A stretch of 64,000 bases of DNA. It comes from Ginglymostoma cirratum. Its lineage: Eukaryota. The notes beneath the pieces were generated by a model, which saw only the letters and a program-made list of their open reading frames with translations, searched no databases and had not been told where the DNA came from. Numbering within the stretch: position 1 is the first letter of the stretch; every line of letters begins with the position of its first letter. The stretch is from contig JAHRHZ010000053.1 in assembly GCA_024137785.1 (NCBI GenBank), positions 5,737,806 through 5,801,805 of the forward strand, read 5' to 3'. Made by a program: the position numbers and the translations under genes. Shown here in pieces: positions 10-63,995 of this stretch.

Positions 10-2055
10 CAAAGAACAAGGAAAATTACAACACAGGAGCAGGCTCTTCGATGCTTTTCTAAACTATAAACCTTTTTCTCTACACAATCCAGTACCCTGT
101 GTTCCCTGCTGATATATATGTCTTTCACGATGCCTCTGAAAGGTTGCTTTTGCATCTGCCTCCATGACCTCCTCTGGCAGGGCATTCCAGGCACTTTCTA
201 ATCTGTGTATAAAAAAACGTTCTTTTCACACTTCCTTTAAACTTACCTCCCTTTACCTTAAACCCATGTCTCCGAGTAATTGACTTTTCTACCCTGGGAG
301 AAAGATGTTGACTGTCCATTCTATCCATGCCTCTCATAACTTTGTAAACTTCTTTCAAGCGGCCCCTCGTTCTTTGATGCTCAACTGAAAACAAATCAAG
401 TTTGTCCAATCCTGAAAGCTAATATCCTCCAAACCAGCTAAAATGTTTCTGTACTTTCTCCAAAGCCTCCTTACCGTTCTGGTAGTTTGGTGACTAGAGC
501 TGTACAAAATATTCCAAATGTAGCCTACGCTCTAAATAGCTGCAATATGCTATTTTTTATACTTTATGCCCTGACAGATGAAGGCAAACATGCCATATGC
601 CTTCTTGACCACCTTATCCACTTGTGTTGCCACTTTCAGGGAAATGCAGACCTGTACATTTAGCTCCCTCTGTTTGTTCATACAGGTTTCTGTCAATTAT
701 TGTGTACTTCCCTCTTGCATTAATGTTGCAAAATATATTGCCTCTCATTTGTTCAGATTAAACTCCATCTGCCATTCCTCACCCAAGTCTCCAACCTGTC
801 TATATCCTGCTATATCCCCCAGCAATCCTCCTCACTATCCACAACTCCTCAATCTTTGTGTCACCTGCAAAGTTACTAATCAGGCCACCTACATTCTCTT
901 CCACTGTGACCTGTGACTAAAAAGGATACACAGATTTTCTCACCTGCCTCCCTCATCATTTTAGAATAGATCCCATCAGGTTCTCAGGACTTGTCTATGT
1001 TAATGCTTTTCAAAACACCCACCATCTCCCTTTTTTGGTATTGACTTGCCTTAGAATATCAACATGACCCTCCCAAGACTCATTAACCACCATGTCTTTC
1101 TCCATTGTGAAGACCAATGCAAAGTGTTCGTTAAGGACTTCAACCACTTCCTCCAGCTCTATGCATAAATTCCCTCCTTTGTCTTTGAGTGGGCCTATCC
1201 TTTCCTGAGCTACCCTCCTGCGCTTTATACATGTATAAAACACCGTGGAAATTTCCTTAGATAACAAGGTGTAGAGCTGGATGAACACAGCAGGCCACTT
1301 TCTGAAGAAGGGTCTAGGCCCGTAACGTCAGCCTTCCTGCTCCTCTGATGCTGCTTGGCCTACTGTGTTCATCCAGCTCTACACCTTGTTATCTCAGATT
1401 CTCCAGCATCTGCAGTTCCTACTAACTCTGGGAATTTCCCTAATCCTGTTCGCCAAGGACATTTTCTGGCCCCTTTTAGCCCTCCTAACTCTTTGTTTGA
1501 GTTCTTTCCTTCTATCTCCTTTTACATTTTGACTAAGCTGTCTTGTCAATTCCTCATGCAAGGTTCCTGAATCTTGCCATCCTCATCCTTTATTTGCATG
1601 GGAACATGCTGGTCCTGAACTCTAATCAACTGGTCTTTAAAAGATTCCCCCAGGCTAGATGTGGTTTTATTTGCAAACAGCCCCCACAATCTATATTCCC
1701 ATTTCCTGCCTAATATGGTGGTAGTAATCTTTCCCTCAGTTTAGTACACTCACTCAAGGATGACTCATATCCTTATCTATAAGTAACTTAAAGCTTACAG
1801 AAATAGGTCACTGCTCCCGAAATGCTCTGCCACTCGATAACCTGCCCTGGCTCATTCCCCAACACCAGGTCTACTATGGCCCTTCTTTATGGGGCTCTTT
1901 ACATATTGTTTCAAAAAGCTGTCCTGGGCACCTAACAACTGCGACACCCACTACCCACACCCCCGCCTCTCCCCCACCCCCGCCCCACAATCCAAGCCCC
2001 CAATCACTAGTGATTCCCACTCAATATAGGGAAAGTTAAAATCAGCATTAGCCAG
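10..2055 (-). mobile_element. CR1-type LINE remnant (ORF2 3' half plus EN-RT linker, internally deleted), interrupted by a hairpin mini-element
   Basis: ORF 125..409 (LDLFSVEHQRTRGRLKEVYKVMRGMDR...RHGFKVKGGKFKGSVKRTFF) is the typical CR1 ORF2 C-terminus. ORF 1010..1288 (IKRRRVAQERIGPLKDKGG...LNEHFALVFT) is the CR1 EN-RT linker. Many stops and frameshifts. Confidence 0.9.
1260..1428. mobile_element. Fold-back PLE-derived mini-element (family A) with decayed hammerhead core
   Basis: Short inverted arm (1260-1297) plus forward copy. CTGAAGA-A-GGGTCTAGGCCC-GTAA-CGTC at 1302-1329 (GAAA mutated). Imperfect TSD tggaaatttcctta (1246-1259) / tgggaatttcccta (1429-1442). Confidence 0.85.
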
Positions 2056-2872
2056 CCCTTTTAAAGCTCTAGGACAAAGTCATCTGAAGCCAGAGACTTG
2101 TTTGTCTGCAGGTACATCAGTTTGCTTAGTAATGTCTGTTTTGTGATTGTAATTACACCAAGTTCTTCTCTCCTTTCCACATTCTAAATTACAACTAATA
2201 CTGGAGTTTCTTTCATCTTCTGTAATGAATGCAAAACCAAAATATTTATCCTTTTCATTCAATATTTGCTTGTTATTTGCTATTTACTGCTGATTCTCTC
2301 TCTCAAGATGACCAACAGACACCACTGAAACTTTACCTTTCTAAACACCTGAAGAAACTCTTGATATTGTCTTTACACTTCTGCCTTGTTTACTCACATA
2401 TTTTATTTTCTTTTTCCTCATTTAATATTTTTGTCATTATCTGCGTTTCTTTATATTCTGTCCAATCACCTGACCAGCCATTCTTCCTTGCACAATTCTA
2501 GGCATATTTCTTGTATTTGATGCATTTGTTAAGTTTTTTAGTTAACCATACATGGTGGATCTTCCCCTTAGAATTTTAGAGGCATGCATTTATTCTGAGC
2601 ATCCTGAAATATGCCTTAAGTATCTTCCACTGCTTCTTTATTTTTATCACCTGCTTAGAATTGCAGTTTGCTTTAGTGAGCTTAGCTTTCACGCCCACAT
2701 AGTTGCCCTTATTTACTGTTAAAAAGCTAGCCTTTGTTTCTAGTTTTCTTCCTTTCAAACTGAATGTAAAATTCAAACATATTTGTGGACACTGCTAAAT
2801 AACTGTGCCTATATTGCGAGATCTTTAATTAATCTTATGACCCTGCATAATACCAAATTGGAATGACCTATT

Positions 2873-3041
2873 GATAACAAGGTATAGAGCTGGATGAACA
2901 CAGCAGGCCAAGCAGCATCAGAGGAGCAGGAAGGCTGACGTTTCGGGCCTAGACCCTTCTTCAGAAATTGGCCTGCTGTGTTCATCCAGCTCTACACCTT
3001 GTTATCTCAGATCGTCCAGCATCTGCGGTTCCTACTATCTC
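2873..3041. mobile_element. Fold-back PLE-derived mini-element (family A)
   Basis: Inverted arms, perfect 14-bp TSD tggaatgacctatt (2859-2872 and 3042-3055), near-identical to copies at 1260, 45005 and 51070. Confidence 0.92.
2937..2964 (-). ncRNA. Minimal type-I hammerhead ribozyme motif (core intact)
   Basis: Minus strand reads CTGAAGA-A-GGGT(CTAG)GCCC-GAAA-CG-TC: full catalytic consensus, 4-bp helix II, palindromic ACGT in place of helix III. Helix I is weak and activity is untested. Confidence 0.7.
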
Positions 3042-3567
3042 TGGAATGACCTATTCTTTGGTTAGCTCCAGAACAGATTGATCTTGGAAATTACCTCAGA
3101 AACAGTTTATAAATGGGTGACCATGACAAATACGGTTTTTTTCATTTTATATGTAGATTATAATCACCAATGCTTATTGCCATTTTGTTATATCAAGCAC
3201 CCAATATTCCTCTTGTATACTCCTTTCTACATTGTGCTTACTGTTTTGGAGCTTCAAGGCCAATCCCCGAGTGTGTTTTTTTACTCTGCTATTCCTCATC
3301 TCTACCCAGTTTGAATCTTTATCCCAATCTCCTCAATCAGGCTCATCTCTAAACATTGCATTCTTAACTAGCAGTGCTCTCCACCTTTATGAGCTTGCTA
3401 TTCTTCCTGAATGTCATCAGCTCACAAGGACCCCTCATACAATCAATCATCAAACAACAGTTTATCGTAATAGTTAAAAAGTCACATTTATTTACTTTAA
3501 TATGCACTCTTAATTAATTTATTTATGAACTCAATGTGCATTCAGATACAGAGCCCTCGGATTGTTA

Positions 3568-3891
3568 ATAGAATCATAGAATCCCCACAGTGTGGAAACA
3601 GGCCTTTTGGTCCAACAAGTCTATACTGACCCTCACAGCATCCCACCCAGATCCATCTCCCTACAAGCCATCTAATCTACACATCCCTGAACACTATGGG
3701 CAATTTAGCATGGCTAATTCACCTAGCCTGTACATCTTTGGACTGTGGGAGGAAACCGGATCACCCGGAGGAAACCTACGCAGATACGAGGAGGAAGTGC
3801 AAACTCCACACAGACAGTCACCTAAGGGTGGAATCGAACCTGAGTTCCTGGCACTGTGAGGCAGCAGACCTGACATCCCAGCCACTGTGCC
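3568..3891 (-). mobile_element. HE1-like tRNA-derived SINE
   Basis: Reverse strand has A-box/B-box head (ggttcgattcc), the conserved 'tgtgtggagtttgcac' core and a CR1-like (ttctatga) tail. Homologous to 25262 and 47038. Confidence 0.9.
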
Positions 3892-5645: not shown

Positions 5646-6262
5646 CATTAGCCAAACTGGCAGAAAACAGCAAGTTTCCTTTCCACAGTTGCCTAAGCTA
5701 ACTGGTTGGATTTACACAATACCAGTTATTGTTTCTTTCCACATTTTTTTAAAAACTGAATTCAAGTTCTCAACCTGACATGCTGGGATTTGAGTTCACA
5801 TTCTCTGGATTATAAATTGATGGTTCAGTTGTGTTATGTTGCATGGTCAGAATGTCAGTATACCTTTAAAAGACAAGCTCATGATATCATGCCAGAGGTA
5901 ACCACATTCCTGAATAAAATGTCTGAGGGATTCTTCAACACCACAAGATACACCTCCACGGAATTATGATATGGGAGATACATGACTGCATCATGTATAA
6001 TTCCCTTCTGAAGGCAAAATAACATCAGGCTCTGGATAACAAGGATAACACATCACACAGTAGAGCTACAGTGGTCCAGGGGCTTTTTGGTCCCTGTTTA
6101 AGAATACAAGATTGAAAAGAAGTGTCATTCCATTGCAATGCCCTCTGTCTCATGTTCCACCCAGCAGTCTGTCTACCGATATGCAAATTCAGAATTGGTT
6201 CCAATTCTCTTTGAAGTGTTTTAATGGAGCTAGTATTTACTGCACTGTGTAACAGTCGATTC

Positions 6263-6325
6263 AGTCAGTTTCTCTTTCCACAGATGCTGCGAGACCTGCT
6301 GAGTTTCTGCAGCATTCTTTTTTGT
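6263..6325 (+). mobile_element. Fragment of PLE-derived mini-element family B
   Basis: ccacagatgctgcgagacctgctgagtttctgcagca matches the arms at 8840-8890 and 50470-50505. Confidence 0.7.
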
Positions 6326-6439
6326 GACAACAATTTCAGGCTCGAATAAATATGTAACAGTTTGTGTGCAGTTTGTCGGTGTTATTGCACAACGTGATAT
6401 TACTATAGCAAAAAATTATTGTGGCTGTTACTGATGTCA

Positions 6440-8679: not shown

Positions 8680-8895
8680 ACAAAAAAAAAGAATTGTGGA
8701 TGCTGGAAATCAGAAACAAGAACAGAAATTGCTGGAAAACCTTGCACGCCTGGCAGCATCTATGGAGAGAAATCAGAGTTAATGTTTTGGGTCTCGTGAC
8801 CTTTCTTCAGAATAGTTCCTGAAATGTTAACTCTGACTTCTCTCCACAGATGCTGCCAGACCTTCTGAGTCTTTGCAGCAATTTCTGTTTTAGTC
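8680..8895. mobile_element. Fold-back PLE-derived mini-element (family B) with CpG-decayed hammerhead
   Basis: Arms ~8720-8790 and ~8818-8890 are inverted. Minus strand near 8782-8810 reads CTGAAGA-A-AGGTC(ACGA)GACCC-AAAA-CA-TT. Confidence 0.85.
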
Positions 8896-10064: not shown

Positions 10065-10288
10065 AAAGGTTCTTGAGTTGATTTGTAGCTCAGGATGTGG
10101 ATATATATACTCCACTACAACGGAAAACCGGAAGTGAGGTAACCCAGCTCAATGGACACCAGAGTTTAAATAACAGGCAGGAAAACACAATAACGCTTCA
10201 TTAGAGGCTACACTGATGATGTTACCCAGCAGGGTAACGAAATGTCTGCAGACCAACAAACCAGCTTGGCGAGCCAACCAACCATAAT
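10065..10288 (+). mobile_element. Poseidon-type Penelope 3' end (pseudo-LTR) with inverted terminal piece
   Basis: Aligns with the 3' region of the PLE at 27756-28000 (reverse strand). TSD attatacaac (10055-10064) / attatacgac (10289-10298). Confidence 0.88.
10211..10250 (+). ncRNA. Minimal type-I hammerhead ribozyme motif
   Basis: ca-CTGATGA-T-GTTACCC(AGCA)GGGTAAC-GAAA-TG-TC-tg: perfect 7-bp helix II; palindromic ACGT changed to ATGT (CpG decay). Confidence 0.75.
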
Positions 10289-25518: not shown

Positions 25519-26458
25519 CAACAAAAATGCTTTTTTCTAGCTTTCTATGTTTCCCTTCAGCTTAATAAATTCAAATCAGAAGCTTCTAACTGAAACTTGT
25601 TTACATTGTTCTGTCATGTTAGTCTTTCAATCTATCGTGGGCCGAAGGGCCTGTAATGTGCTGTACTGTTCTCAACACACACCTGTTAGTCCTTGGAGGC
25701 TAATTGTCTTAAACAGTTATAAAAGAATTACTGTAGCATCAAAAATAACTCATAAGGTAATCATTAAACACTTTCAGGCACTCAGAAAATCTCATATGTC
25801 TCTAGTTCAAAATTACAAATTCAAACAAAAAAAAATTAACATTATACAAATCATGCATCCTACATCACAACATGATTACACTTTATTTGTTCTGGACAGC
25901 TATCAACTAATAATTCACATTGACTTTGCTGACAAAAGATGTTAGGAACATAGAAACACAAAAATAAGACTAAGCCATTCGGCCCATTGGACCTACTCTA
26001 TTGACCCATTAATAACTTAGTAAGTTTAAGTGGGATCACCTTCCTTTCTTATAAACTGCAGACAATACAGCCCAGTTTCTTCAATCTCTCTTCATAGGAC
26101 AGACCCACCATCCCGGCAATCAGTGTAATGAACCTCTGCTGCATTCTATGGCAATTACATCCTTCCTCAGGCAAGGGACCAAAATGGCACACATTAGTCA
26201 AAGTACAATCTCACTGTTGTTCAATGCAATTGAAGCAAAATGGCTTTGCTCCTGTACTCAAATCCTTATGTGATAACACCTAACAGACCACTTGCCTTTT
26301 GAATTGCTTGTTAATACGTGATGCTATCTTTCAGTAACTTATTAACAAAGACATGTTGGACTCTTTGGACATCAACACTTCCACCATTTAAGGAATACTC
26401 TGCACCAGAGTGGATAGTCTCAAACATACCCATCCTCCCCATTTTCTATTGCATTTGT

Positions 26459-27232
26459 TGTTTAGGTTGTAGACATGCTCGCCGTTGTCCGTGTGTAGAC
26501 AAGTGAGAATTGGCCGTGTCTCTTAGTGGCTAGTTGGTGTTCATGTATCCATATTGTCAGTTTTCTTCCAGTGTGGCCTATGCAGTGCTTCTCGCAGTCC
26601 TTGCAAGGTATTTTGTATATTACACCGGTTTCGCTGGTTTTGGGTATGGGATCCATTACGTTTGTCAGGAGCTGTCATAGGGCGATTGTTGGTTTGTGGG
26701 TTAATCTCGTACCCAGGGGTCGGAGTAGTTTTGTAGTCATCTTTGAGATGTCCTTCATGTATGGTAGGGTGATTAGTGAGTCTACAGACTCCACAAGGTA
26801 AACAAATTGGGGGTCCCACTCAGACCCATTGGTTCACTACCAGGCACAACAACATATAGACTTGCTAAAGAACTACACCAGAAACGAGGAACATAAATTT
26901 GATTGGGACAAAACATCTATAATCACACAAGCCAAACAGAGACATGCCAGGGAATTCCTGGAGGCCTGGTATTCCAACCGGAACTCTATCAACAAACACT
27001 TCAAATTAGACCCTGTGTACAAATCAGTGAGAAACAGAACCTGAAGTAATACCAACCACCCCAGCAAACTGAGGCATATAAATAACAAGTGGAACAGATC
27101 ACCGACGCTTCACCGGAGCCGCACTGACGACGTTACCTAGCAGGGTGACAAAACATCTGCAACCAAACACACCGGCTCAGCGAGCAAGTCTACAACCTCA
27201 TCCACAACCCGAGTAGATCTTCTCGAAAACTT
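26459..27232. mobile_element. Rearranged Poseidon-type Penelope insertion (GIY-YIG and RT pieces in both orientations)
   Basis: Minus: GVIYKIPCKDCEKHCIGHTGRKLTIWIHEH (GIY-YIG). Plus: KVNKLGVPLRPIGSLPGTTTYRLAKEL (RT N-term), then EEHKFDWDKTSII...REFLEAWYS...SINK and 3' UTR. 7-bp duplication catttgt at 26452-26458 / 27233-27239. Confidence 0.92.
27121..27160 (+). ncRNA. Decayed minimal hammerhead motif in Penelope 3' UTR
   Basis: gca-CTGACGA-C-GTTACCT(AGCA)GGGTGAC-AAAA-CA-TC-tgc. Helices I and II pair; GAAA and CG are hit by CpG transitions, so it is probably inactive. Confidence 0.65.
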
Positions 27233-27452
27233 CATTTGTCCTGTTTTGCTCACATATTCAGCGTTTCAAAATTTCCTTTAACCCTCTTCATGTCCTTCTC
27301 ACATTCTCACCAAGTTTTGAATTGTCGTCAGACTTGGAAATATTACAAAAGATCCCCACATCCCAGCTTATAAAGCGTTAAAGCCCAAGCACTGATCCTT
27401 GTGGTCACCGGACACAACTGACCAACCTGAGAAAGACCCATTTATTTATTTG

Positions 27453-27725
27453 AGATAGCAAGATGTAGAGCTGGACGAACACAGCAGGCCAGACAGCACC
27501 AGAGGAGCAGGAAAGCTGATGTTTCGGCTCTGGACCCTTCTTCAGAAATTATTCAAAGTACAATCTTACCATTGTTCAATGAAATTGAAGCAAAATGGTT
27601 TTGCTCCTGTACTCAAATCTTGATGTGATAATTTCTGAAAAAGGGTCCAGACCCAAAATGTCAGCTTTCCCTCTCCTCTGATGCAGCCTGGTCTGCTGTG
27701 TTCATCCAAATCTACACCATGTTAG
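27453..27725. mobile_element. Fold-back mini-element (family A variant) with captured ~80-bp spacer
   Basis: Two ~95-bp inverted arms, each ending at CTGAA(G/A)A. TSD cccatttatttatttg (27437-27452) / cccatttctttatttg (27726-27741). Confidence 0.92.
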
Positions 27726-27755
27726 CCCATTTCTTTATTTGTTTTCTGTTTGTTC

Positions 27756-28930
27756 TCAATCTTTAAGGTTTTGGAGTAGCTCAGTAGCTCGGGTTGTGGG
27801 TGTTGAGGTTGGTTGGCTCGCCGAGCTGGTTTGTTGTTCCGCAGACGTTTCATTATTGTGCTTGGTAACATCCTCAGTGCAGCCTCTGATGAAGCATCGG
27901 TGTGTTTTCCTGCCTGGTTTCTGAACTCTAGGGTCCGTTGCGATGGATTGCCTCACTTCCGGGTTTCCTCCGTAGTGGAATGTATATGGGGTCGAATTCA
28001 ATGTGTTTATTAATAGCATGCTTCGTGGAGTGCCATGCTTCCAGGAATTCTCGTGCTTGTCTCTGCCTAGCCTGTCCCAGGATCTTGGTGTTGTCCCAGT
28101 CGAAGTCGTGGTTCTCCTTNNNNNNNNNNNNNNNNNNNNNNNNNNNNNNNNNNNNNNNNNNNNNNNNNNNNNNNNNNNNNNNNNNNNNNNNNNNNNNNNN
28201 NNNNNNNNNNNNNNNNNNNTGTAGTGCTTCTCGCAGTCTCTGCAGGGGATCTTGTAGATGACATTGTCCATGGTGGGGAGTGGGTCTTTAGTTCGGGTGA
28301 GCACTTGCTGTAGGGTTGATGTGGGCTTGTGAGCCACTCTGATGCCCAGCAGTCGTAGAAGTCTTGTGGTGAGTTCTGACGTGTTCCTGAAGTAGGGTAG
28401 TGTGATGAGTGTGTCGGGACATGTAGAATCTTTCTGATGCTGTTCCTGTAGGCATCTCCTGACCCAGTTCTTTGGATATCCATTATCCTTGAACACTTGG
28501 AAGTGGTATTCCTCCTCCTCTTGGCGTAGTCCCATGTTGCTGCAGTGTGTTGTTGCCCTTTTAAGTAGTGTGTGCATGCAGCTTCGTTTGTGTGTGCTGG
28601 GATGGTTACTATTGAAGTTCAGTACCTGGTCTGCATGTGTGGTTTCTCGGTGTACTTTCGTTTGCAGTTCATATTTGTCTTGCGCTCTACCATGACGTCC
28701 AGGAATGGGAGTTGACGGTTCTTCTTCTCCTCTCTGGTGAATTTTATTCCGGTGAGGGTGTTGTTTCTGAGTTTGTGTGTCTCTTCTAATTTGGTCCGTT
28801 TAATGATGACAAAGGTGTCATCTATGTAGCGTATCCATAGTTTAGGTTGGATTTGCAGAAGGGCAGTCCTTTCCAGTCTTTGCATCACTGCTTCTGCTAT
28901 GAGTCTGGAGATAGGCGATCCCATGGGTGT
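27756..28930 (-). mobile_element. 5'-truncated Poseidon-type Penelope element (RT + GIY-YIG, frameshifted)
   Basis: RT motifs TPMGSPIS, WIRYIDDTF, IKFTRE, LPFLDV; thumb LLKRATTHCS...NGYP; GIY-YIG NVIYKIPCRDCEKHY. Frameshift near 28670; contains the 100-N gap. Confidence 0.95.
27841..27880 (-). ncRNA. Minimal type-I hammerhead ribozyme motif (core intact)
   Basis: Minus strand: gca-CTGAGGA-T-GTTA...TAAT-GAAA-CG-TC-tgc. 3-bp helix I (gca/tgc), 4 bp of helix II left, intact ACGT palindrome. Confidence 0.72.
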
Positions 28931-29875
28931 TCTCAATTTACAAATCATGCTTCTATATAACCCCGATTCACACATGCTTTAATTTTGTTTTAAGTCTTGA
29001 AAAAGAAATGAAACTCCCAGCCCATTTATTTCCCTTTTTTTTAAACATATTTTTTCCTTTTGATTTTGTTTACCACTGTTTTACTATGTTTACCTGCTCT
29101 GTCCCTTCCTGTCCCACTCTCGGTATTGTTAGTCAAATAGCTGCCCTGTGATGCTGCTATAACTTTTTGTTTTGTATGTTTAAATTTCTTCTGTCCCAAA
29201 TCCTCCTCCCCCTCATTGGTTTTAAGCCCTTTCTATGGCCCTTGTTATTTGATTCACCAGGTTTCTAGTCCCAGCGCAATTCAAGTGAACCCCATGCTAC
29301 CAGAACACGTTCCTTCTACCCCAGTCCTGCTGCTGGTGTACCACAAACTGAAACCCATTCGTCCCACTCCAATCGTTGAGCCACACGTTTAACTCCTGTA
29401 CTTTATTTACCTTATGCTAGCCTGACTGCAGCTGCAGCAGTAGCCCAAACATTATTACCTTAGAAGTTCTGCCTTGTAATTTAATTCCGAATTGTTCAAA
29501 ATCTTTCAGCAGAACTTCCTTTCTAGTCTGACAATGCTATTGGCACCAACATGGATCCCTCCCCCTCCAAGTTCTTCTCCAGCCCAAAGAGGGTTTTGTT
29601 AACCATGGTGCGGGACAGGCAACACAGTCTTCATAACTTCTGCTCATGGCTAGAGAGCACAGTATCTATTTCCCCAAATTATACTGTCCCTTCCCAGAAC
29701 TGCATTCCAGTTTCCTTCCAGCAACTCAGACTCCAGTTCCTCAACTCAGATCTGAATTTCCTTGAGCTGCGAGCACTTCGAATACTACAAATATGTTCAC
29801 TCTTGATTACATTGACGTCAAGCAGTTTCCACATGTTGCAGCAACAACACATCACTCATCCTGCCACCACCATGT
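28930..29875 (-). mobile_element. CR1 LINE 5' region (ORF1 zinc-finger/esterase remnant and start of ORF2)
   Basis: Minus-strand VMCCCCNMWKLL...HICS near 29850 and VHLNCAGTRNLVNQITRAIERA* near 29290-29222 (SGNH-type ORF1 end). Confidence 0.7.
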
Positions 29876-34440: not shown

Positions 34441-34447
34441 GGATCAA

Positions 34448-34570
34448 ATTACTGCAGATGCTGGAAACATTTACTGAAAAGAAAAAGTGCTGGAAATCAA
34501 AGTAGGTCAGGCAACATCCATAGAGGGAAAACAAGTTAGTGTTTTGAGTCTAGAAGATTCTTCATCAGAC
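34448..34570 (-). mobile_element. Single-arm PLE-derived mini-element with decayed hammerhead
   Basis: Homologous to 48784-48988. Minus strand reads CTGATGA-A-GAATC(TTCTA)GACTC-AAAA. Confidence 0.75.
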
Positions 34571-38589: not shown

Positions 38590-39375
38590 TTCTGTTCGTT
38601 CAGCAAGCTGTTAGTAAGGCTAATGCAAGGTTAGCTTTCATTGCAAGAGGATTTGAGTAAAGGAGTAGTGAAGACTTGTTTTATTTTTAGAACAACATTT
38701 TTAATCAGTACCTGCGGCATTGTGTGTAGGTTTGCCCTTCTTGTCTCAGGAAGGATGTCCTTGCCATGGACAGAGTGTAAGGATCACCAGAGTTGTTCCC
38801 AGGATGGCAGGACTGTCAAATGAAGAGAAATTGGGCAAACAACACCAGTATTCTGCAGCGTTTCAAAGAATGAGAGGTGATGGGATTGAAAACTGCAAAA
38901 TACTTATGGTGTGCCCAGAATAGATGCAGGTAAGACATTTCCCCGTTTAGGGAGTGGAAAACCAGGGGGCGCAATTTAAAAATGAGGGGAATGTCACTTA
39001 AGTCCAGGAGGAATTATTTTACTTAGAAGATTGTGAACCTTTGAAATTCTCTACCACAAAGAACTGTGGAAGCACAGTGATTGAATATGTTAAAGACAGA
39101 GATTAGAGACAAAAAAAACTGCAGATGCTGGAATCCAAGGTAGACAAACAAGAAGAACACAGCAGGCCAAGCGCATCTTATGGAGAGGAGCAGTCAACGT
39201 TTCGGGTATTACCCTTCTTCAGGACAGAGATTGATTGATTTTCTGGTTAACAGTGGTGTAGAGGTAATGGAGATGTGGTGTTTAAAAAGCATTAAGTGTT
39301 CCATCAGCCATAATTGTATTTAATGGTGGGGAAGGCTTGTTGTGCTGAATGGCCTATTTCTATTCCTATATTCCC
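38590..39375 (+). mobile_element. CR1 LINE 3' portion
   Basis: Degenerate ORF2 C-terminus (RMRGDGIENCKIL); interrupted by a mini-element at 39105. Confidence 0.85.
39105..39222 (-). mobile_element. Single-arm PLE-derived mini-element with intact hammerhead core (39196-39222)
   Basis: Perfect 10-bp TSD gacagagatt (39095-39104, 39223-39232). Minus strand CTGAAGA-A-GGGT(AAT)ACCC-GAAA-CG-TT. Confidence 0.88.
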
Positions 39376-45004: not shown

Positions 45005-45152
45005 CCGATGAAGGGTCTAGGCCCGAAACGTCAAGCCTTCCTGCTCCTATGATGCTGCTTGGCCTGCTGTGTTCATCCAGCTCCACATCTTGTTATCTCG
45101 GATTCTCCAGCATCTGCAGTACCTATTATCTCTGATACAATTTTAACCCCAC
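45005..45152 (+). mobile_element. Single-arm mini-element (family A) with one core mutation
   Basis: CCGATGA-A-GGGT(CTAG)GCCC-GAAA-CG-TC at 45005-45032; body near-identical to 1300-1428. Confidence 0.88.
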
Positions 45153-48210: not shown

Positions 48211-48783
48211 ATAAGTGTCTACAATTTAAAATTTCAATGTACCTTCTCAATATTGCCCATTTTCTTGATATGACATTGATCTTTCAGATTGATTTTTCCT
48301 ATTGGGTGAGCTTTGTTCCCTTGTATATCCTCAATTTAACACCTGACAGCTTTTCAGGTCACCATCTTAAATGAATTCATGCAGGTCTGCAAAGCACACT
48401 GTGCTACAGATAGAACCAGTGCCTATCTGACACTCCATACTCGTTTGATTTTGACCTCTGCAGTCATCATTCCAAGATACGCAAACTAGTTTTTAACTGG
48501 TGACTCGATGCTGTGTTCTCAGGAGGGAAATTTTTTTCAGAACCATCGTCCTACGTTTCTGCAGCAGACATTTTTTATAAGTTTGTTTTACAATCCAGCA
48601 ATGAGTGTCATCACTTGTGAGCAAAGTGATTCTGATTTTTTCAGTTACAGAATTGCCTCCTTTTCTTTCACATTGTGTTCTCTGCAATATTTGCATCCTG
48701 TATCTTGACTTTCTGCTGGCCCTTCTGTAAATATCTCATTTGCCTTTGACTTGCACTTGTAAGGAGTGGACATCTTCTTAGAA

Positions 48784-48988
48784 ACAAAATTGTTAGAAAT
48801 CACAGCAGATCAGGCAGCATCCATGGAGAGAGAGCAAGCTAATGTTTTAAATCTAGATGATAAGGGTCATCTAGACTCGAAGCACTAGCTTGCTCTCTCT
48901 CTTTGGATGCTGCCTGATCCATTGCGATTTCTGGCATTTTTTATTTTCAGGACAGATTCCAGCATCTGCAGTAATTTGCTTCTACAGT
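48784..48988. mobile_element. Fold-back PLE-derived mini-element
   Basis: Inverted arms meeting at tctagatga-taaggg-tcatctaga. TSD ttcttagaa (48775-48783, 48989-48997). Confidence 0.85.
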
Positions 48989-49594
48989 TTCTTAGAATAT
49001 TGCAAAGCCTTTTTGATCTTCCATTAATTCTCCCGGTTGATCATTTAAATCCACAGAACTTTTACAGATGTCATAACTTTTTTGAGTGTGTGTTTCCCTT
49101 CTCTCAGCAGACATGCTGTCACAGAGGGATTGCTCATTTCTAAAGCAGCCATCTCTCTGATCAGATCATCCTTCAGCTGCCCAAGCTCACAAGATTCAGC
49201 TAGACATCTCAGTAAAATCACAAAACTGATCAATATTCACTCTCTGTTCCTGAGCTGACGACTCACATAATGTTAAAGTCCTATTTAAAGTTGCAGACTT
49301 AATTCTGAATTATGCTTTGCTGTTTCTTACAGCAGCTGGCTCTCTTGAAACTATGAAAATACACTCAATATTGGATGCATACTCCTGACAATATGTTCCA
49401 ATGGTGGATCTAATGGCTTCTGCTCTTTCGCCTTAATCGAAAGGATAACTTCAGAGGTGACTTAATTATGGCAAACAGCAGTGTACAAAGATATACTTCC
49501 AAACACAATATTCTCCAATGGTAACATTTCACTGCTATTCCTGTCCCCAGCACTTGCTCCTCCTCACATATGATGCGGTTCAAACTTTGTTTCA

Positions 49595-50145: not shown

Positions 50146-50363
50146 AGATTTGTGAAACTAGATCTTCTGAGGTGTATGTGAATCTGTGCTGGTGAATGAT
50201 GCAAAGGACTCATGTGATGTCCTCAGAGTGCTAATCTCTGAAGGGGTCTTTAGCCTCTTCTCCTACATTCTACATCAAAGATGGCAACAGACTTGCGAAG
50301 GAGGAAAGGCACGAATTAATGCTATAAGAAGATGAATAGTGTATACATTATGATATTTCGTGA

Positions 50364-50645
50364 AACAAGAACAGAAATTGCTGGAGAAACTCAGCACTTC
50401 TGGCAGGACCCGTAGGAAGACAGAAGAGTTACATTTCAAGTTTGGTGACACTTCCTCAGCTGTTCCTCAGACCTGCTGAGTTTCTCCAGCAATTTCTGTT
50501 TTTGTTTCTGAGGAACATCTGAGGAAGTGTCACCAAACTTGAAATGTAACTCTTCTGTCTTCCTACAGGTCCTGCCAGAAGTGCTGAGTTTCTCCAGAAA
50601 TTCCTGTTTTTAATTTCAGATCTCAAGCATATGCAGATCTTCGTC
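50364..50645. mobile_element. Fold-back mini-element (family B) with 91-bp near-perfect arms
   Basis: 50381-50471 vs reverse complement of 50507-50597: 89/91 identical. TSD ttatgatatttcgtga (50348-50363) / ttatgatatttcatga (50646-50661). Confidence 0.92.
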
Positions 50646-51071
50646 TTATGATATTTCATGACTTGGTGATATCAGTTCAACAACAGTAACCTGAGTTTGT
50701 TCTCTCACCTCTCTAGCATTTAACAACAAACTTCTGAATGACACATCTTATGTCACACACATTTCTTTCTCTTTTGTACCATCAATAAAGCTTTAATGTC
50801 ACTGTCCATAATGGATGAGGAAGTACTTGAGATTTTCATAGTTTGAGAGGCGGGTTCCATGTTTTGGTTCCATTTACAGAAGGTTCCTGCTTTTTGGCTG
50901 GAATATACAATGTTGCACTCAATGTTGCTATTGGGAATACCACATGGTTTCCTGCACTGGAAATACTTAAATGCATGTTTAGATATATCACCCTGTCTTC
51001 CTTGATCAGGAGGACTAGAGAAGGGAGGATAATATCATAGTCCTGTGAAAACAAAACATATTGTATGGAGA

Positions 51072-51657
51072 TAACAAGGTGTAGAGCTGGATGAACACAG
51101 CAGGCCAAGCAGCATCATAGGAGCAGGAAAGCTTGACGTTTCAGGCCTAGACCCTTTCTGANNNNNNNNNNNNNNNNNNNNNNNNNNNNNNNNNNNNNNN
51201 NNNNNNNNNNNNNNNNNNNNNNNNNNNNNNNNNNNNNNNNNNNNNNNNNNNNNNNNNNNNNNNNNNNNNNNNNNNNNNNNNNNNNNNNNNNNNNNNNNNN
51301 NNNNNNNNNNNNNNNNNNNNNNNNNNNNNNNNNNNNNNNNNNNNNNNNNNNNNNNNNNNNNNNNNNNNNNNNNNNNNNNNNNNNNNNNNNNNNNNNNNNN
51401 NNNNNNNNNNNNNNNNNNNNNNNNNNNNNNNNNNNNNNNNNNNNNNNNNNNNNNNNNNNNNNNNNNNNNNNNNNNNNNNNNNNNNNNNNNNNNNNNNNNN
51501 NNNNNNNNNNNNNNNNNNNNNNNNNNNNNNNNNNNNNNNNNNNNNNNNNNNNNNNNNNNNNGCTCCTATGATGCTGCTTGGCCTGCTGTGTTCATCCAGC
51601 TCTACACCTTGTTATCTCAGATTCTCCAGCATCTGCGGTTCCTACTATCTCTGAAAC
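51072..51657. mobile_element. Fold-back mini-element (family A) spanning the 400-N gap
   Basis: Inverted arms on both sides of the gap. TSD attgtatggaga (51060-51071, 51658-51669). Confidence 0.88.
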
Positions 51658-52285
51658 ATTGTATGGAGAACTGGGCGCTGGTAAACAGAACAAATGTGCA
51701 AATGTTTCAAGAACTCTATGAAGAAGTCTCTGCCTGAGTGCCACATCAACCTTCACTAGTAGGAAGAACAGACAAAAGATATTATGTTGATGGTGCTGCA
51801 GGAACCTTTGAGACTGAATGAGAAACTGGCACGAAAGATAAAAAGAATAGCTTCAACTGCTGCCAGCAACAGCTACACCTTCACAGTAGGAAAATCTGCC
51901 ATCATGGACTGGTCTGATTAGCCACCAGTGGAGTTACAACCAACAAGTACAAACTTCCTGAAATCTTTCTCCACCAAAGAAGAAGAAAGATGAAATTAAA
52001 GTTGCAGCACCTTCAAAACTCAAGGTATTCCAAAAACTCTTTATAGCCAATAAAATATTCAGAATTGTTTTATCATCATTCTTGTGAGTAGAAGAACAAA
52101 GCAGACAATTTAGAAACAGACCTAGCACTCCAGACAGCATTGAAATAGATTTTTTTTTGTGTGGTTTTCAATAGATTATGATGAGATCCCTTAGAAAGCT
52201 CTCTACTCTTCTTTGAGTGCCATGACACCTATTGGATCCAACAGAAAGCCCAGACAGAAGCTTTTCAGGTTAGATATGAATTACA

Positions 52286-54384: not shown

Positions 54385-54700
54385 ACGTTCATTCATGGGA
54401 TGTGGGTGTTATTGGCTAGGTCAGCGTTTCTTGTCAGTCCCTAATTTCCCAGAGGACAGTGAAGAGTCAATCACATTGTTGTGGGTCATACACAGGGTAG
54501 ACAATCAGGACATTAGGAAACCAGATAAGTTCTTCCTTACAATCAACAACAGTTTTATTGTCATCATGAGACTTGTAATTCCAGATTTGTTATAGGATTC
54601 AAATTCTACCAACTGCTGTGGTCGGATTTGAACCCAGGTCCCCAGAAATGTACTTCGATCTCTGAATTAATATTCTAGCCTGAATACCACATCGCCTTCC
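54385..54700 (-). mobile_element. tRNA-derived SINE (same family as 31995-32325)
   Basis: Direct similarity, including ggatttgaacccaggtccccag. Confidence 0.85.
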
Positions 54701-54719
54701 CTGGGGTGACATTAAGACA

Positions 54720-55533
54720 AAAATGTACCCAAGTGAGAAAGGAGGATTCCAGGAAGTGAATAACCCAATTATGGTTAACCAAGGCAATTAAAATAGTATT
54801 TAGTTGAAAGGAAAAGTACATAAAATGTTGTAAGTATTCGTGGTAAGCCAGAAGTTTGGAAAAATTTTAAGAACAAAGGATGACCAAAAATCAAACAAAT
54901 GAGAGACAACTAATTTTTAGGATAAACTAGAAAGTTACATAAAAAAAAGTGTACTAAAAACCTTCAAATACGTAAACAGTTACAGAGAGGCCAAATTGAA
55001 AGCATCAGCTTTAGAGAATGAGACTGGGAAATAATAATTGGGAACCAGGAAATGGCAGAGGAATTGAATAAATACTTTTCTTCAATCTTCACAATAGAAG
55101 AGACAAATAGCATTCCAACAATACTAAATAATCAAGGTGCAAAAGATGGAGATGGAAAAAATACAATATCTTTAACTAGAAAAAGGTATTAAGGAATCTA
55201 ATGGGGCTAAGGAACAAAAATTCCCCTAGACCCAATGAGTTGCATCTTAGGATAGTAAAAGAAGTAGCTGCAGAGATAATAGATCCACTGGTAATAATCT
55301 TCCAAGAATCCTTAGAGTCTGGAAGAGCCCCAAAGGATTGTAAAACTGCCAATGTATCAACCTAATTCAAAAAAAACTAGGTAACCAGAGACCAATTAGC
55401 TTAACATCTATCACAGGGAAATTGTTAGAGTCTATTGTCAAGTATGTAATAGTAGAGCATTTAGAAATACATAACATTATCAAGCAGAGTCAATGGCTCT
55501 GTGAAGTGGAAATCATGCCTGTTCAAATTATTA
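54720..55533 (+). mobile_element. CR1 LINE linker/RT remnant
   Basis: GNQEMAEELNKYFSSIFTIE...NQRPISLTSITGKLLESIV. Confidence 0.9.
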
Positions 55534-56035
55534 CAGTGACCCTTCTTCAGAATTGATTGTAGGTAGGAAGAGGTTGGTATCTATGCTGTAAAAGGGATAA
55601 GACAAGGGGGAGGAGTATCTAGTAGGTGAAGATGCATTCCAGAGAGAGAGAGAGAAAAGTAGTTGGACAGACAAAGGACTTAGGAAAGGTTATCCTGGGA
55701 GAATAAATAGCTGCTAATGGAGACCACTTGTGGCTGCCAATGGGTTTTACTTGGTAGCAGCCTGTGTGATAACAAGGCCTGGTGTGTGGGGATTAGGAGG
55801 AGGACATGGGAGAAGGTGCTCAGGCCCTGAAATTATTGAATTCATTGTTGAGTCCAGAAGGCTGCAGGGGTGCGAAGTGGAAAATGAAGTGCTGTTCTTC
55901 TAGATGGCACTGAATGTCACTGGAGCACTTCAGGAAACCTAAGCCGGAGTGCTGGCCAGGGAACATGTTGGTACATTGAAATAGCAGGCAACCGGAACTT
56001 TAAGGTCATTTTTGTGGACAGAAATGGATGGTAAA
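55534..56035 (-). mobile_element. Neptune-type Penelope-like element 3' part (GIY-YIG C-terminus, 3' UTR, truncated hammerhead)
   Basis: Minus-strand LKCSSDIQCHLEEQHFIFHFAPLQPSGLNNEFNNFRA* (stop at 55820-55822), a pyrimidine-rich UTR, then ttCTGAAGAAGGGTCACTG at 55534-55553. Confidence 0.8.
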
Positions 56036-57549
56036 GTAATTTTCATGCCCATGCATTTCTAAGCCTCTTTTAAAAGTATCATCTTCATTCTGTAAGAAAT
56101 CCCAATCATTAACAAGGGTGGTTTCCTAATTATAGTCCTTTAAAAGAAGATTTTTGTTTCCTTTCTTAAAATTTTTTTTTGAAACACATGTTCATCAGAC
56201 ATTAATTGTAGAGGAAAAATTTCCTCAACTAATATCCAGAGTGACTTTGGGGTTCTGGATATTTCCATATAAAGATTTTATTCATCCATCTATTTGCGAA
56301 CCTATTTGTTTTGTTAATAGTTTAAGAACACTGGTAGTCTCTGCGTAAGACTTGTAGAAACCTTGTGTAATACTTCTAAGGTTTGAGTTTGCTGTGTGAG
56401 TATTAATAAGTGAGCTTTTTGGTCAGCAGTCTCTTAGACATGGATACATTGCTCCAATTCTTGTTTGATCTGATTAAGGTCCATTAGTGCTTGCCATTAA
56501 CCATCACTAAGCCATTCTATACTTCCAGCAGTTTTGTAGCTTGATCTTCTATTTGTTGACTGAAAAAAGCCATCAGTGTCTCTATGATGTGTTGATGAGA
56601 TATACTTGTACACCCCATATATAATTTTTATAATAGGTTATGAATTTATGAGCATTGATTGACCTGATCCAGTTTGGATTATTAGATAATTTTATATTTG
56701 CTGCTGTAAATCATTAAGCTATCTATTGGTGGACCGTTTCTGAGGTTTCAATTTTTTCTCTGAATATGTCAATTAATATTGATATTCCCTGTGCATGATT
56801 TTAAAGATATGTTGCACATAGCTGGCTTCTGGCAATACAGTTGGGGTATCCTTGGTGCTGCCTTAAGCTTCAGAGTCTGTGGATCGGCACAGAAGCTCTG
56901 AGATTCTTTCACCCAGGAGTGAAGATCCCTTTCTAACTCCACAATATGGGACATCTCTGGTGGCTGCGCTAGAGCAGTTAAAGATGCCAGATCTCCTTCC
57001 CTTGAGAACATTAGTGAATTGGACAGGTTTTTAGAAGGATCAACATTAATAACATGGTCACTACTAGGCTAAGTTTTTATTCCAGTTTTCATTTTTTTAC
57101 AGTTTCAAATTTCAACACCTGCCGTTTTGGGATTCAAACCCATGTCTCTGGAATATTAGCCTGGCATTCTGGAAAACTTGTCCAGTTAACACTTCAGAAG
57201 CATCTCCACCTGAAGCATCCACTCATCCTAGTAAAACTTGCACACCCACAAGTTCTTCTTAGGCTGTGGAGACCAGGATTGAACTCAATATTCTAACTAA
57301 GGTCTATTTTTTGTTTGTTTAAAGCTTAGAATAGCTTGATTCTAATGCACTAAAAACTAACTTAGATTTATGAAGCCTCTTTCTTAAATTCAAGACAACT
57401 ATAGTGTTTTATAGACAATGAAGTACTTTTTGTTTAAAATACAGTCATCTAGGAAAGACTATTTATTACTAAAGCCAAGGATCCTCATATATTTAAGAAC
57501 CTGCTCAGCTTGTCCTCCCATTTTAATACCCTCTGGATCATCACCTGAG

Positions 57550-59374: not shown

Positions 59375-59454
59375 GCTCTTTAATGACAGGTTGGTGAAGA
59401 TTACTTTATTCCTTGCTCTTTAATGACAGGTTGATGAAGATTACTTTATTCCTT
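59375..59454. repeat. 40-bp tandem duplication
   Basis: gctctttaatgacaggttg(g/a)tgaagattactttattcctt x2, 39/40 identical. Confidence 0.97.
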
Positions 59455-61200: not shown

Positions 61201-61242
61201 CATATGCATGACTTCTGTAAGGCAATGAATTATTTTCCCTTG

Positions 61243-61373
61243 GAGATAGTAGGAATTGCTGATGCTGGAGTCTGACATAACACACTGTGGAGCTGGATGA
61301 ACACAGCAGGCCAGGGCAGTATCAGAGGAGCAGGAAAGCTGACGTTGCGGGTTGACCCGAAACGTCAGCTTCC
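61243..61373. mobile_element. Family A mini-element folded back at the hammerhead helix II
   Basis: aagctgacgttgcgggt-tg-acccgaaacgtcagctt hairpin. Imperfect TSD attattttcccttg (61229-61242) / attatttgtctttg (61374-61387). Confidence 0.85.
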
Positions 61374-61409
61374 ATTATTTGTCTTTGTTTTGTATAATGC
61401 ACTTATTTT

Positions 61410-62040
61410 AAATTCAGTCATGGCATGTGGGCATTACTGGCTATCCAGAGTTGATTGCCTGTCTCTAGTTACCCTTAGGAAGATGGTGGTAAGCTGCCTT
61501 CTTGAACTGCTGTAGTTCGTTTGGTGTAGGTAGACCCACAATCCCATTTAGAAGGGAGCTCCAGGATGTTGACCCAGACACACTGAAGGAATACGTTTCG
61601 AAGTCTGAATGCTAAGTGGTTTAAGGTAAACTTGGTGGTGTTTTGCTATGTATCCACTACCCTTATCCTTCTAGGTGGTAGGGCACCATGGGTTAGGAAG
61701 GTGCTGTCTTTGGAGATTTGGTTAATTTCTGCTGTGCATCTTGTGAATGGTGCTTTCTGCTGTTTCTATGTGTCAGTGTTGGAGGGACTAAATGTTTGTC
61801 GTTGTGGTGCCATCAAATGAGTGGCTTTATTCTGGAAGATGCCAAATGTCTTGAGTGTTGTTGAAGCTGCAATTATCCAGGAAAATGAGGAATATTGTAT
61901 CACATTCTCGACTTGTTCCTTTTAGATGGTAGATGAGCTTTGAGGGTTCGGGAGGTGAGTTACTTGCTGCATGATTCCAAGCTTCTAGCCTGCTGTTATA
62001 ATCACTCCACATACAACAAGTCCAGTTCAGTTGCTGACTT
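61410..62040 (-). mobile_element. Second LINE family 3' portion
   Basis: Reverse complement of the 11500-12080 type sequence. Confidence 0.8.
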
Positions 62041-62370: not shown

Positions 62371-63361
62371 ATCGAATGTTGTGGAAGATTCCTGTGTACT
62401 AAGTTTGTCTTACAATGCTGGAATGGAACATTGAAGGAAAAGTTGGTACACTGACTGAAGGGTTTGAAAACACGAAAGCAGGGTGGAAAATTTTGTCAAA
62501 GCAGTCAGTAAAGAGTGTAAAGTAATTTTTGAATTATGCTGGAGTGGTGAGAGAACTGTAGCCTCACTGTTTGTGTGCCAATAAAAATGCCTTCTTCACT
62601 CCATCATTGAATATCTTCATAGATATAGGTGATAGAGATAACACCCCAGGACTGTGTGTGTTCATGCATAACCTTGAAATTGGGACCAAGCAAGTACAGC
62701 TTTGAACAAGTGCAACAGTTCAAAAAAGAACAATTGAGTAGACCAAAAACAAGTATTATTGATATGGAACACATCGTAACAATTGTGCGATATAAAAAAA
62801 AGGACTATGAAAACAATCACTGATGCACTGGATAGAGCAGTTTGGTCAACTGTTCTGTGCTTGGAGATCTGTCAATAGATTAATTACCTAAGGCCTGTGT
62901 GGTTCCTCAGCAACCAGTGTCATTGTGAGCTGGTTTTATTATGTAACGGTTTCATAAAGGAGCAGCACATTTGTTGGAACAGTTGTTGCACGTCATTGGT
63001 ACATGAGCCTTTAGATCTATCTCTCCCCGAAGTCCATTTGACAATGGCTGCTAACTGGGGAGATTTTCCTTAATCATTGCTTGGCTATTTGGCGATAGAT
63101 GCTTGACAATCGAATCATAGAATGAGACCGCGTATTGACTGAGAGACATGAGTGATTATCCTAAACACATTTCTTGTAAAGGGATCTCTTTACAGAGATT
63201 GTAGAGGGAAAAGCCTTCTTTCACCACAACAACCCTCATCCTTTTGATCCTCATCATCACTAACATCCATATATATATATATAAGCACAGGGCAATGTAT
63301 CACAATCAAAAAGGCAAAAGAACATTTCCTACCCAAACCATGTCATTTCTCTTTCAAAGTA

Positions 63362-63560
63362 GATGGTTAGCTCAGTTGACTGGATGGTTGGTTTGTAATG
63401 TAGAATGATGCCAACAGCATGGGTTCACTTCCTACACTAACTGAATTTGCCAAGAACTTCCTCAATCTCACTCCTTGCTTGAAGCTGTGGGTGTAGCTGC
63501 CACCAGTCATCTCTCTGACAAGAATTCAATCCTCAGAGACTGTAGTGATTTTACCCTTGC
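63362..63560 (+). mobile_element. tRNA-derived SINE (same family as 5422-5645)
   Basis: tggttagctcagttgactgg A-box-like head and gggttcacttcc B-box-like motif. Confidence 0.6.
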
Positions 63561-63789
63561 TCTTACAGATCCAGATGTGAAAATTTACGGTTTTAAAATC
63601 TCAAAATGCTTTTTAATTTATATTTGTTCCATGAAGCCTATTTAGATATTTCTTTCGACCTTATTATTATTGAGAGTAAAGTCACGATATTAATGGCCGA
63701 CTGCATTTTTACCAAATTCTTTACTTCACTATTTGAAGAGATGAAATTAGTCGGATCAACAGCTACACTTAGCAAATAGGACAACTTTG

Positions 63790-63995
63790 AAACAAAAACA
63801 GAAGTTGCTGGAAAAGCTCAGCAGCTCTGGCAGCATCTATGAAGAGAAATCAGAGTTAACGTTGCGAGGTCCGAAGACCCTTCCGCACTGGACCTGAAAT
63901 GTTAACTCTGATTTCTCTTTACAGATATGAGCAGACCTGCTGATATTTTCAGCAACTTCTGTTTTTGCTTCTAATTTATAGCATCAGCAGCTTTT
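63790..63995. mobile_element. Fold-back mini-element (family B)
   Basis: Inverted arms ~63790-63872 and ~63889-63970, meeting within the hammerhead helix II region. Confidence 0.85.

Follow-up and report, generated by a model that had tools for sequence, protein, structure and literature searches.

Insertions of Penelope-like elements (PLEs) are described as beginning, at the 5' end, with a truncated copy in inverted orientation and as having a single-sided tail and target-site duplications (TSDs) of variable length (PMC3846280, PMC8557442), and the minimal hammerhead ribozyme of metazoan PLEs is described both as dispersed single motifs and as opposite-strand pairs 100-700 bp apart (PMC4209133). 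How PLEs build tandem and inverted structures, and for what purpose they keep a hammerhead, are treated as open questions in the relevant sections of PMC8557442, PMC3846280 and PMC11167929. Short non-autonomous PLEs are described from butterflies (10.1101/596502) and Chlamydomonas (PMC8557442), and retrozymes, including one from a cartilaginous fish, are argued to be derivatives of the PLE pseudo-long terminal repeat, or pLTR (bioRxiv 10.64898/2026.07.22.740005). Here we analyse 64 kb of the shark Ginglymostoma cirratum (contig JAHRHZ010000053.1, positions 5,737,806 to 5,801,805; hereafter the window), in which an initial annotation, made from the letters alone, had listed twelve related insertions and taken them for hammerhead-bearing, fold-back mini-elements. 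The insertions, called minis below, share one 5' boundary at the hammerhead, and the reading we prefer, with a probability of roughly 0.55, is that they are integrated run-off complementary DNAs (cDNAs) of the 5' leaders of Neptune-type Penelope mRNAs.

All twelve listed insertions were found at their coordinates (Table 1), and self-blastn placed them in two homologous clusters, namely family A (1260, 2873, 27453, 39105, 45005, 51072 and 61243, the numbers being positions in the window) and family B (8680, 34448, 48784, 50364 and 63790), the latter including also a thirteenth related insertion at 6257-6352 that had been overlooked. As cross-family nhmmer matches reach an E-value of 2e-10, against 2.2 for the best match in the reversed window, the two families appear to be one superfamily with several subfamilies. 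The thirteen loci span 2274 of the 63,500 called bases (3.6%), at a density of about one per 5 kb; a weak profile match at 14985-15077 (E 0.007), perhaps a very old copy, was left uncounted together with other profile hits of E >0.1.

Nine of the twelve listed loci (nine of thirteen with the added one) are inverted-arm hairpins, that of 51072 being inferred across a 400-N gap. The eight whole hairpins have fold energies of -48 to -194 kcal/mol (z -3.7 to -30, 30 base shuffles each); for single arms the folding did not exceed that of shuffles (nine of nine, z -1.1 to 1.35), leaving a conserved stem at the start sites unsupported. TSDs beyond a null of 600 random intervals were detected at eight of the twelve loci (P = 0.002-0.025), with lengths of 9, 10, 12, 13-14, 14, 16 and 16 bp, plus 7 perfect bp at 61243. 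By the same test TSDs were absent at 8680, 34448 and 45005, and the right flank of 63790 is cut by the window end. The initial counts of nine hairpins and eight TSDs of 9-16 bp were thereby reproduced, with 51072 bridged across its gap. No poly(A), A-rich or repeat tail was seen by eye in the aligned arms and ARAGORN found no tRNA gene in the window, the latter being a weak test for decayed heads; both results agree with the earlier statement that poly(A) tails and tRNA heads are lacking, and on these grounds a tRNA-derived short interspersed element (SINE) was rejected. An Rfam scan at E<=5 returned no hammerhead family and only sub-threshold microRNA hairpin matches.

Read on the hammerhead strand, an arm consists of the hammerhead, about 60 nt of further sequence and a tail of about 30-35 nt, with one 3' end before the tail and another after it, both 3' ends lying, by eye, about 18-22 nt past a copy of TCCAGC in families A and B alike. 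Exactly one arm is tailed in seven of the nine hairpins, and two tailed arms were never seen; the exceptions are 27453, which has no tail, and 61243, which is a tailed arm with a short fold-back. A tail is also present in three of the four single arms. Since a tail at one end, an inverted truncated copy and variable TSDs are what PMC3846280 and PMC8557442 describe for PLEs, the insertions are very probably pieces of PLE pLTRs. The proposed PLE origin, by retrotransposition and not by cut-and-paste, is likewise upheld by the one-sided tails, the variable TSDs and the single-arm copies.

The joins between arms are as informative as the tails. The two-arm copies (1260, 2873, 8680, 48784, 51072 and 63790) are joined head to head, often with 2-5 nt of microhomology. 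The junction of 1260 recurs in the reverse complement of 2873, the two differing at 4 of about 135 positions and having their tails on opposite arms and different TSDs; the other seven hairpins all have differing junctions. Nevertheless, the short arm of 50364, a member of another subfamily, starts at the same column as the 1260/2873 junction, which indicates that a junction can recur independently. The tailed arm is the longer one in some hairpins and the shorter one in 2873 and 63790; the latter arrangement requires two primings or a flip, and favours two primings. The outer arms of 50364 match no other arm as closely as they match each other (92%), and the three parts of this insertion are best read as a head-to-tail jump plus an inverted copy. 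The idea that the hairpin is rebuilt at each insertion is thus supported by separate TSDs, tails on either arm and varied junctions, although its stronger form, that every copy is different, fails on 1260 and 2873.

In 45005 and 51562 a conserved ATG frame of the arms is closed by a stop where the tail ends, and it was for this reason judged probably not to be an ORF (open reading frame) start. A splice-acceptor-like stretch (branch-point-like, pyrimidine-rich, with CAG directly before the ATG) was noticed at 8822-8852, 63900-63930 and 6270-6283; it is limited to part of family B and absent from family A.

The window also contains an ORF to which family B may be connected. A motif scan identified the probable frameshifted C-terminal end of a GIY-YIG endonuclease, the motif E-x3-I-x7-P-x-GLN occurring once in the window and in one of 200 shuffles. 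Fig. S2 of PMC8557442 gives this spacing for the endonucleases of Neptune and Naiad, and Naiads are described in that paper as having an N-terminal endonuclease and no hammerhead; Neptune is therefore the likelier clade. About 270 nt past the stop of the endonuclease motif frame lies the 5' half of a family B hammerhead. Its 19-mer at 55534-55552, of which up to 4 nt may belong to adjoining sequence of a long interspersed element (LINE), has three other matches at <=3 mismatches, all in minis, where 0.02 are expected; mini profiles alone match the site weakly (E 0.44 and 7.4). The suspected link to a PLE ORF hence appears to be present in the window (55534-56060) for family B, by a motif match and not by a database match; for family A no partner was found. 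No partner reverse transcriptase (RT) was detected in the window by motif scan. Several short coding-looking frames lie beside the Neptune piece at 56000-57300, with no match in Pfam or, for 56772-57068, in the Atlas.

The most prominent property of the arms is where they stop. Arm-to-arm blastn alignments of family A end 3-5 nt before position C3 of the hammerhead, and the flanks further upstream are unrelated. Thirteen of 22 arm 5' ends lie between -11 and +5 relative to C3 and 18 of 22 between -11 and +20, the remaining ones being three at +56 or +57 and one near +30; the coordinates were set by hand, with the right arm of 51072 inferred from 7 nt before the gap and the fold-back piece of 61243 excluded. 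No arm extends beyond about 11 nt upstream of the hammerhead, none enters the 3' untranslated region (UTR) of the Neptune piece (blastn), and under constant-hazard truncation such a pile-up has P ~1e-14. At the corresponding place the Neptune copy has an initiator-like A 4 nt before C3 and a TATA-like box with two mismatches at -31 from the initiator. When scanned with the TATA and initiator consensus words, this pair occurs at 255 of 127,000 positions (0.2%), in a test made after the fact. TATA plus initiator are described for rotifer pLTRs (PMC3846280), and the pLTR promoter known from D. virilis lies farther upstream (PMC2377424). The cleavage site is spanned by 18 of the 22 arms; only the 6269 arm may begin there, and 21 of 22 ends lie elsewhere. 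Like the anatomy and the boundary, this read-through is seen directly in the copies, and it indicates that the templates were uncleaved. Uncleaved RNA is likewise described as a template in vitro for PAc, a Poseidon element of Anolis (PMC11167929).

The reading we prefer can be put as follows. The pLTR promoter would start the mRNA about 4 nt before C3, so that the RNA begins with helix I. The PLE protein would nick both DNA strands, and reverse transcription would start from two internal sites, one on either side of the tail, which in the minis would be about 95 and 125 nt away from the RNA 5' end. Two internal start sites around the tail and nicks on both strands are described in vitro for a PLE of another clade, whose protein needs RNA beyond the tail (PMC11167929). 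Because RNA beyond the tail exists only at the 5' pLTR-ORF junction of the mRNA, priming there gives a cDNA of only about 95 or 125 nt if the mRNA starts at the hammerhead. As read from the copies, the enzyme would then pass the uncleaved hammerhead and run off the RNA 5' end, after which the short cDNA could meet any of four fates: it may be joined straight to the target (39105); it may be joined head to head, through microhomology, with a second cDNA from the other start site, leaving one arm tailed (1260, 2873, 8680, 48784, 51072, 63790); it may snap back (61243, probably 50364); or it may jump to another template, which would be host DNA in 27453 and a second element copy in 50364. Staggered nicks would yield the TSDs of 9-16 bp. 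The four fates are taken from the copies, and the order of events, the use of the promoter and the ends of the RNA are what we infer. Such copies have neither the promoter nor the part of the ORF that follows the tail, and are expected to be dead on arrival.

On the run-off reading, shark genomes would preserve a very large number of snapshots of the reaction, in which initiation sites, end point, joins and jumps could be read off the sequence alone, and the mechanism of PLEs would become testable by counting. It is attractive to speculate further, although we hold this only tentatively and think it rather unlikely, that Neptune replicates by a target-primed version of retroviral first-strand transfer and that the minis are failed jumps. 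The mRNA would start at the hammerhead, reverse transcription would begin about 125 nt in and run off, and the cDNA would jump to the RNA 3' end to copy the ORF; cleavage by the 3' hammerhead would leave exactly the shared terminal repeat that accepts the jump, which would give the ribozyme a role. Retroviral minus-strand strong-stop DNA likewise arises by internal priming near the RNA 5' end, and the short run-off cDNA must jump; in the shark, by contrast, priming would be from the nicked chromosome, so that unjumped products integrate. The minis would then be a very large fossil record of intermediates.

Several points weigh against the run-off reading. The junction common to 1260 and 2873 can also be explained by inheritance with a flip, and later trimming of palindrome centres could add to the asymmetry of arms. 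Sister arms are each other's closest relatives in only 8 of 16 comparisons, a result that fits both a two-RNA and a snap-back origin and does not separate them. The promoter at the 5' edge of the hammerhead is suggested by one decayed copy with a two-mismatch TATA, recognised post hoc, and in two of the three Poseidon-type copies in the window a TATA-like box precedes C3 by about 47 nt, yet all three extend past that place; nor was any Poseidon-type mini seen in the self-blastn of the window. In Penelope of D. virilis the start is described as lying ahead of the hammerhead, separated from it by 46 nt and an intron of 75 nt (PMC2377424). The Neptune endonuclease piece has no match in homologue searches, the Atlas or Pfam, and no profile match to Poseidon-type proteins; peptide searches for an ORF partner of family A returned nothing, or one whale shark gene model without RT. 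Finally, the evidence base is one 64-kb window.

The fixed 5' end and the several coherent subfamilies would also be expected if dedicated non-autonomous masters, i.e., pLTR-derived genes of about 130 nt (SINE-like or retrozyme monomers) with their own transcription, were mobilised in trans by the Neptune protein. The imbalance of thirteen minis to a single ORF-linked Neptune end, the missing partner of family A, and the short non-autonomous PLEs and retrozyme monomers in the literature point in the same direction. Nevertheless, the 5' end of family B lies directly behind an endonuclease ORF, no tandem array of the unit occurs in the window, the minis have no upstream promoter motifs and the protein needs RNA past the tail in vitro; we thus regard such masters as a serious but unlikely explanation. 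The tandem hammerhead units of a non-LTR retrozyme in particular were not found in the window, which has one partial tandem only, at 50364. Heavy 5' truncation, known for PLEs, raises the more ordinary case that the minis are truncated Neptune 3' ends at which the enzyme stalled on a structured or protein-bound hammerhead, possibly formed by two RNAs paired via palindromes. Five more arms end inside the hammerhead and a further three at one column near +57, which suggests that hot spots of stalling or joining do exist. Most arms, however, traverse helix II and end on its far side, where the folding of single arms is no stronger than that of shuffles, and the initiator and TATA-like motifs coincide with the boundary; stalling as the general cause is therefore improbable.

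Hairpin masters that were retrotransposed whole, with the loop sometimes flipped between the arms, would account for 1260 and 2873, which have one junction in common and whose loops are inverted with respect to the tail. The differing junctions of the other seven hairpins, the short arm of 50364 at the same column in another subfamily, and the four single-arm loci make inheritance of this kind very improbable. As short, non-coding, abundant insertions with inverted arms, the minis also resemble miniature inverted-repeat transposable elements (MITEs), that is, DNA transposons with long terminal inverted repeats. This reading is scarcely credible: TSD lengths range between 9 and 16 bp, the two arms are not equal, one side has a tail that is not part of the inverted repeat, TSDs also flank copies with a single arm and the sequence continues the end of a PLE ORF. 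The fixed terminal inverted repeats with a fixed short TSD by which the initial annotation would have recognised a MITE were not seen, and asymmetric termini with non-fixed TSDs already contradict one. A separate class of mini-element, as first proposed, is not needed to explain the insertions.

The ancestry and the present state of the hammerhead have to be distinguished. All twelve insertions overlap the motif wholly or partly, as first reported; a strict descriptor passes only two of them (2964 and 39222, both on the - strand) and a Poseidon-type PLE (27877, - strand), with none in 20 shuffles. The catalytic core, an extra base after A9 and a palindromic helix III are present, which bears out a minimal type-I ancestry. 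Families A and B have the same majority letter in 11 of 11 core columns versus 77 of 111 others (P = 0.02), suggesting that the masters kept the core. In the copies of family A, however, conservation of the core does not exceed that of the remaining sequence (61/66 versus 773/823), so that copies appear to decay neutrally; the values for family B, with mixed subfamilies, are 67/76 versus 787/976. The predicted conservation of the core was thus seen between the family majorities and not among the copies of family A. Mismatches in the core are zero in 5 of the 11 arms that span it. Helix I has 3 bp in one of ten mini arms examined (39105) and is 2 bp or broken in most copies; two of three Poseidon copies have it contiguous at 3 bp. 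In helix II, 89% of cells are paired in nine arms, above slid controls. The covariation of helix II proposed for the minis was not significant, as 73-127 of 500 shuffles reach the measures, and clear pair swaps appear only against Poseidon copies. Core, helix II and a 3-bp helix I coincide at no more than one of 13 loci (39105). Together with the unimproved core of family A and the read-through of 18 arms, this argues against the notion of functional ribozyme mini-elements, and the ribozymes of the minis are probably mostly dead. A long hairpin would moreover bury the motif where the opposite arm covers the hammerhead. Dimeric PLE hammerheads are reportedly the subject of a 2017 paper. A degenerate hammerhead pattern gave no match in bacterial and archaeal genomes.

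Table 1. Minis, Neptune-type and Poseidon-type features, in window coordinates.
Feature	Position	Strand	Details
1260, family A hairpin	1247..1442	+	antisense arm 1260-1298 short, tail-less; sense arm 1297-1429 long, tailed; hammerhead C3 at 1302, one core mismatch
1260, TSD	1247-1259 / 1430-1442		13 bp, 2 mismatches
2873, family A hairpin	2859..3055	+	tail-less long arm 2873-2969; tailed short arm 2968-3041; 14-bp TSD
2873, hammerhead	C3 at 2964	-	perfect core, 2-bp helix I
6257-6352, family B single arm	6248..6361	+	start near cleavage site
6257-6352, possible TSD	6248-6256 / 6353-6361		9 bp, seen in widened search only
8680, family B hairpin	8681..8894	-	tailed long arm on - strand, C3 at 8810; tail-less shorter arm 8817-8894; no clear TSD
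27453, family A hairpin	27437..27741	.	two full tail-less arms, C3 at 27545 (-) and 27635 (+); captured 84-nt spacer 27548-27631; 16-bp TSD
27453, likely spacer source	26193..26276	+	90% identity, same orientation, 1.35 kb off; 2-3 nt microhomology at both joins
34448, family B single arm	34445..34570	-	tailed, ending at hammerhead 5' edge; decayed; no TSD
39105, single arm of distinct subfamily	39095..39232	-	tailed; 10-bp TSD
39105, hammerhead			sole locus with perfect core, helix II and 3-bp helix I; helix I 5' strand overlaps TSD
45005, family A single arm	45005..45134	+	tailed, start at C3; no TSD
48784, family B hairpin	48775..48997	+	join inside hammerhead; right arm tailed; 9-bp TSD
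50364, three-part insertion	50348..50661	+	antisense arm 50362-50470; short sense piece 50468-50508; tailed long sense arm to 50645; 16-bp TSD
51072, family A hairpin	51060..51669	+	split by assembly gap 51162-51561; right arm tailed; 12-bp TSD
61243, family A	61229..61387	-	tailed arm folding back at palindromic helix II, about 15 nt recopied
61243, TSD			7 bp perfect; 14 bp with 3 mismatches by eye
63790, family B hairpin	63789..63995	+	join in helix II; right arm tailed; right flank lost at window end
Neptune-type GIY-YIG endonuclease, frameshifted C-terminal end	55820..56058	-	motif E-x3-I-x7-P-x-GLN, from motif scan
Same element, 3' UTR and 5' half of family B hammerhead	55534..55819	-	C3 at 55550; abuts LINE RT fragment
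Same element, promoter-like motifs	55578-55585; 55554	-	TATA-like box; initiator-like site, A+1
Broken Poseidon-type PLE	27768..28950	-	RT, endonuclease, pLTR, complete minimal hammerhead with C3 at 27877; sequence family other than minis
Second Poseidon-type 3' end	26498..27230	.	inverted 5' segment
Third Poseidon-type 3' end	10103..10283	+	hammerhead C3 at 10213

Besides the minis, the window carries the Poseidon-type copies used above for comparison. PLE RT near the minis has named shark matches in Chiloscyllium, Rhincodon and Hemiscyllium at 60-74% identity. Past the Poseidon hammerhead, the segment 27768-27890 (- strand) is similar to the N-terminus of a PLE protein from Chiloscyllium (E 0.001), suggesting that helix II contains the start of this Poseidon ORF, as it does in the anole element. 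In the copy at 26498-27230, the 5' part (26498-26788, -) and the 3' part (26835-27230, +) encode consecutive stretches in opposite orientation, and an extra 34-codon piece from further upstream lies at the join; the arrangement resembles twin priming in LINE-1. Three PLE insertions lie within 2.5 kb (26498-28950), with about 40 nt separating the 27453 hairpin from one end of a Poseidon copy. The 51072 hairpin is young, its arms being 100% identical over 57 nt; it encloses the assembly gap at 51162-51561, of which the true size is probably about 40 nt, and a second gap (28120-28219) likewise falls within a PLE. XP_048472946.1, a whale shark gene model, opens with 28 residues that are the translation of a family A copy. 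Minis can thus mislead annotation, being scored as microRNA hairpins, lying at an assembly gap and supplying 28 residues of a gene model.

Among the remaining sequence, Pfam searches on 91 of 103 longer window ORFs gave one RT fragment and no host gene domain. Self-blastn revealed three other repeat clusters (3674-3890, 25297-25463 and 47044-47227; 12809-13391, 15959, 19988, 32014, 54381-54690 and 61396-61752; 11423, 21357 and 61812), presumably SINE- or LINE-like. LINE fragments, which we take to be CR1-like, occur at 55344-55533 and 37020-37268 (both RT matches), 43346-43706, 291-343, 3568-3659, 31030-31207 and 35257-35631. Tandem features comprise a 29-bp minisatellite with an inverted piece (52696-52842), a 40-bp tandem duplication (59375-59454) and (GAAT)7 at 52286-52313.

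A literature search, outside which lay subscription journals, Dfam and Repbase, found no shark pLTR hairpins, no fixed hammerhead 5' end and no run-off model; these families may well be curated already in Dfam or Repbase. The portions of PMC8969392, PMC12602865 and PMC8455134 that were available contain nothing on these elements. As far as they are described in the sources, non-LTR retrozymes resemble the minis in being non-coding, pLTR-related, dispersed as monomers and equipped with a type-I hammerhead, one being from a cartilaginous fish; they differ in their head-to-tail arrays with a hammerhead per unit, whereas no such arrays occur here, ends lie off the cleavage site and most copies are inverted pairs (bioRxiv 10.64898/2026.07.22.740005). 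With the minimal type-I hammerheads of PMC4209133 the minis share the core CUGANGA, the extra base after A9, the G10.1-C11.1 pair and a palindromic ACGU in the place of helix III, but not an intact helix I, which is 2 bp or broken in most copies; the examined rows of Fig. S3 in that paper include no cartilaginous fish.

The in vitro account of PAc (PMC11167929) agrees with our reading in the two internal start sites flanking the tail, the nicks on both strands and the uncleaved template. PAc belongs to another clade, however, and has an AC-rich start region and an ORF from helix II, both shared by the Poseidon copies in the window; in the minis this region is rich in pyrimidines instead. Neither run-off products nor hairpins are treated in the relevant parts of the PAc paper. 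The closest counterpart is the Neptune clade of EN+ PLEs, described as having a pLTR with a hammerhead, an inverted, 5'-truncated head-to-head copy, a tail of 30-40 nt at one end, variable TSDs of 8-16 bp, host DNA captured between pLTRs and, in a pLTR, TATA plus initiator (PMC8557442, PMC3846280). While truncation is variable in those descriptions, 13 of the 14 Neptune-type loci here are pLTR-only and stop at a common boundary, which lies at the hammerhead. PLEs were already known to have inverted pLTRs, tails and hammerhead pairs on opposite strands, and the trait that distinguishes the shark insertions is that almost all copies are pLTR-only with one 5' boundary.

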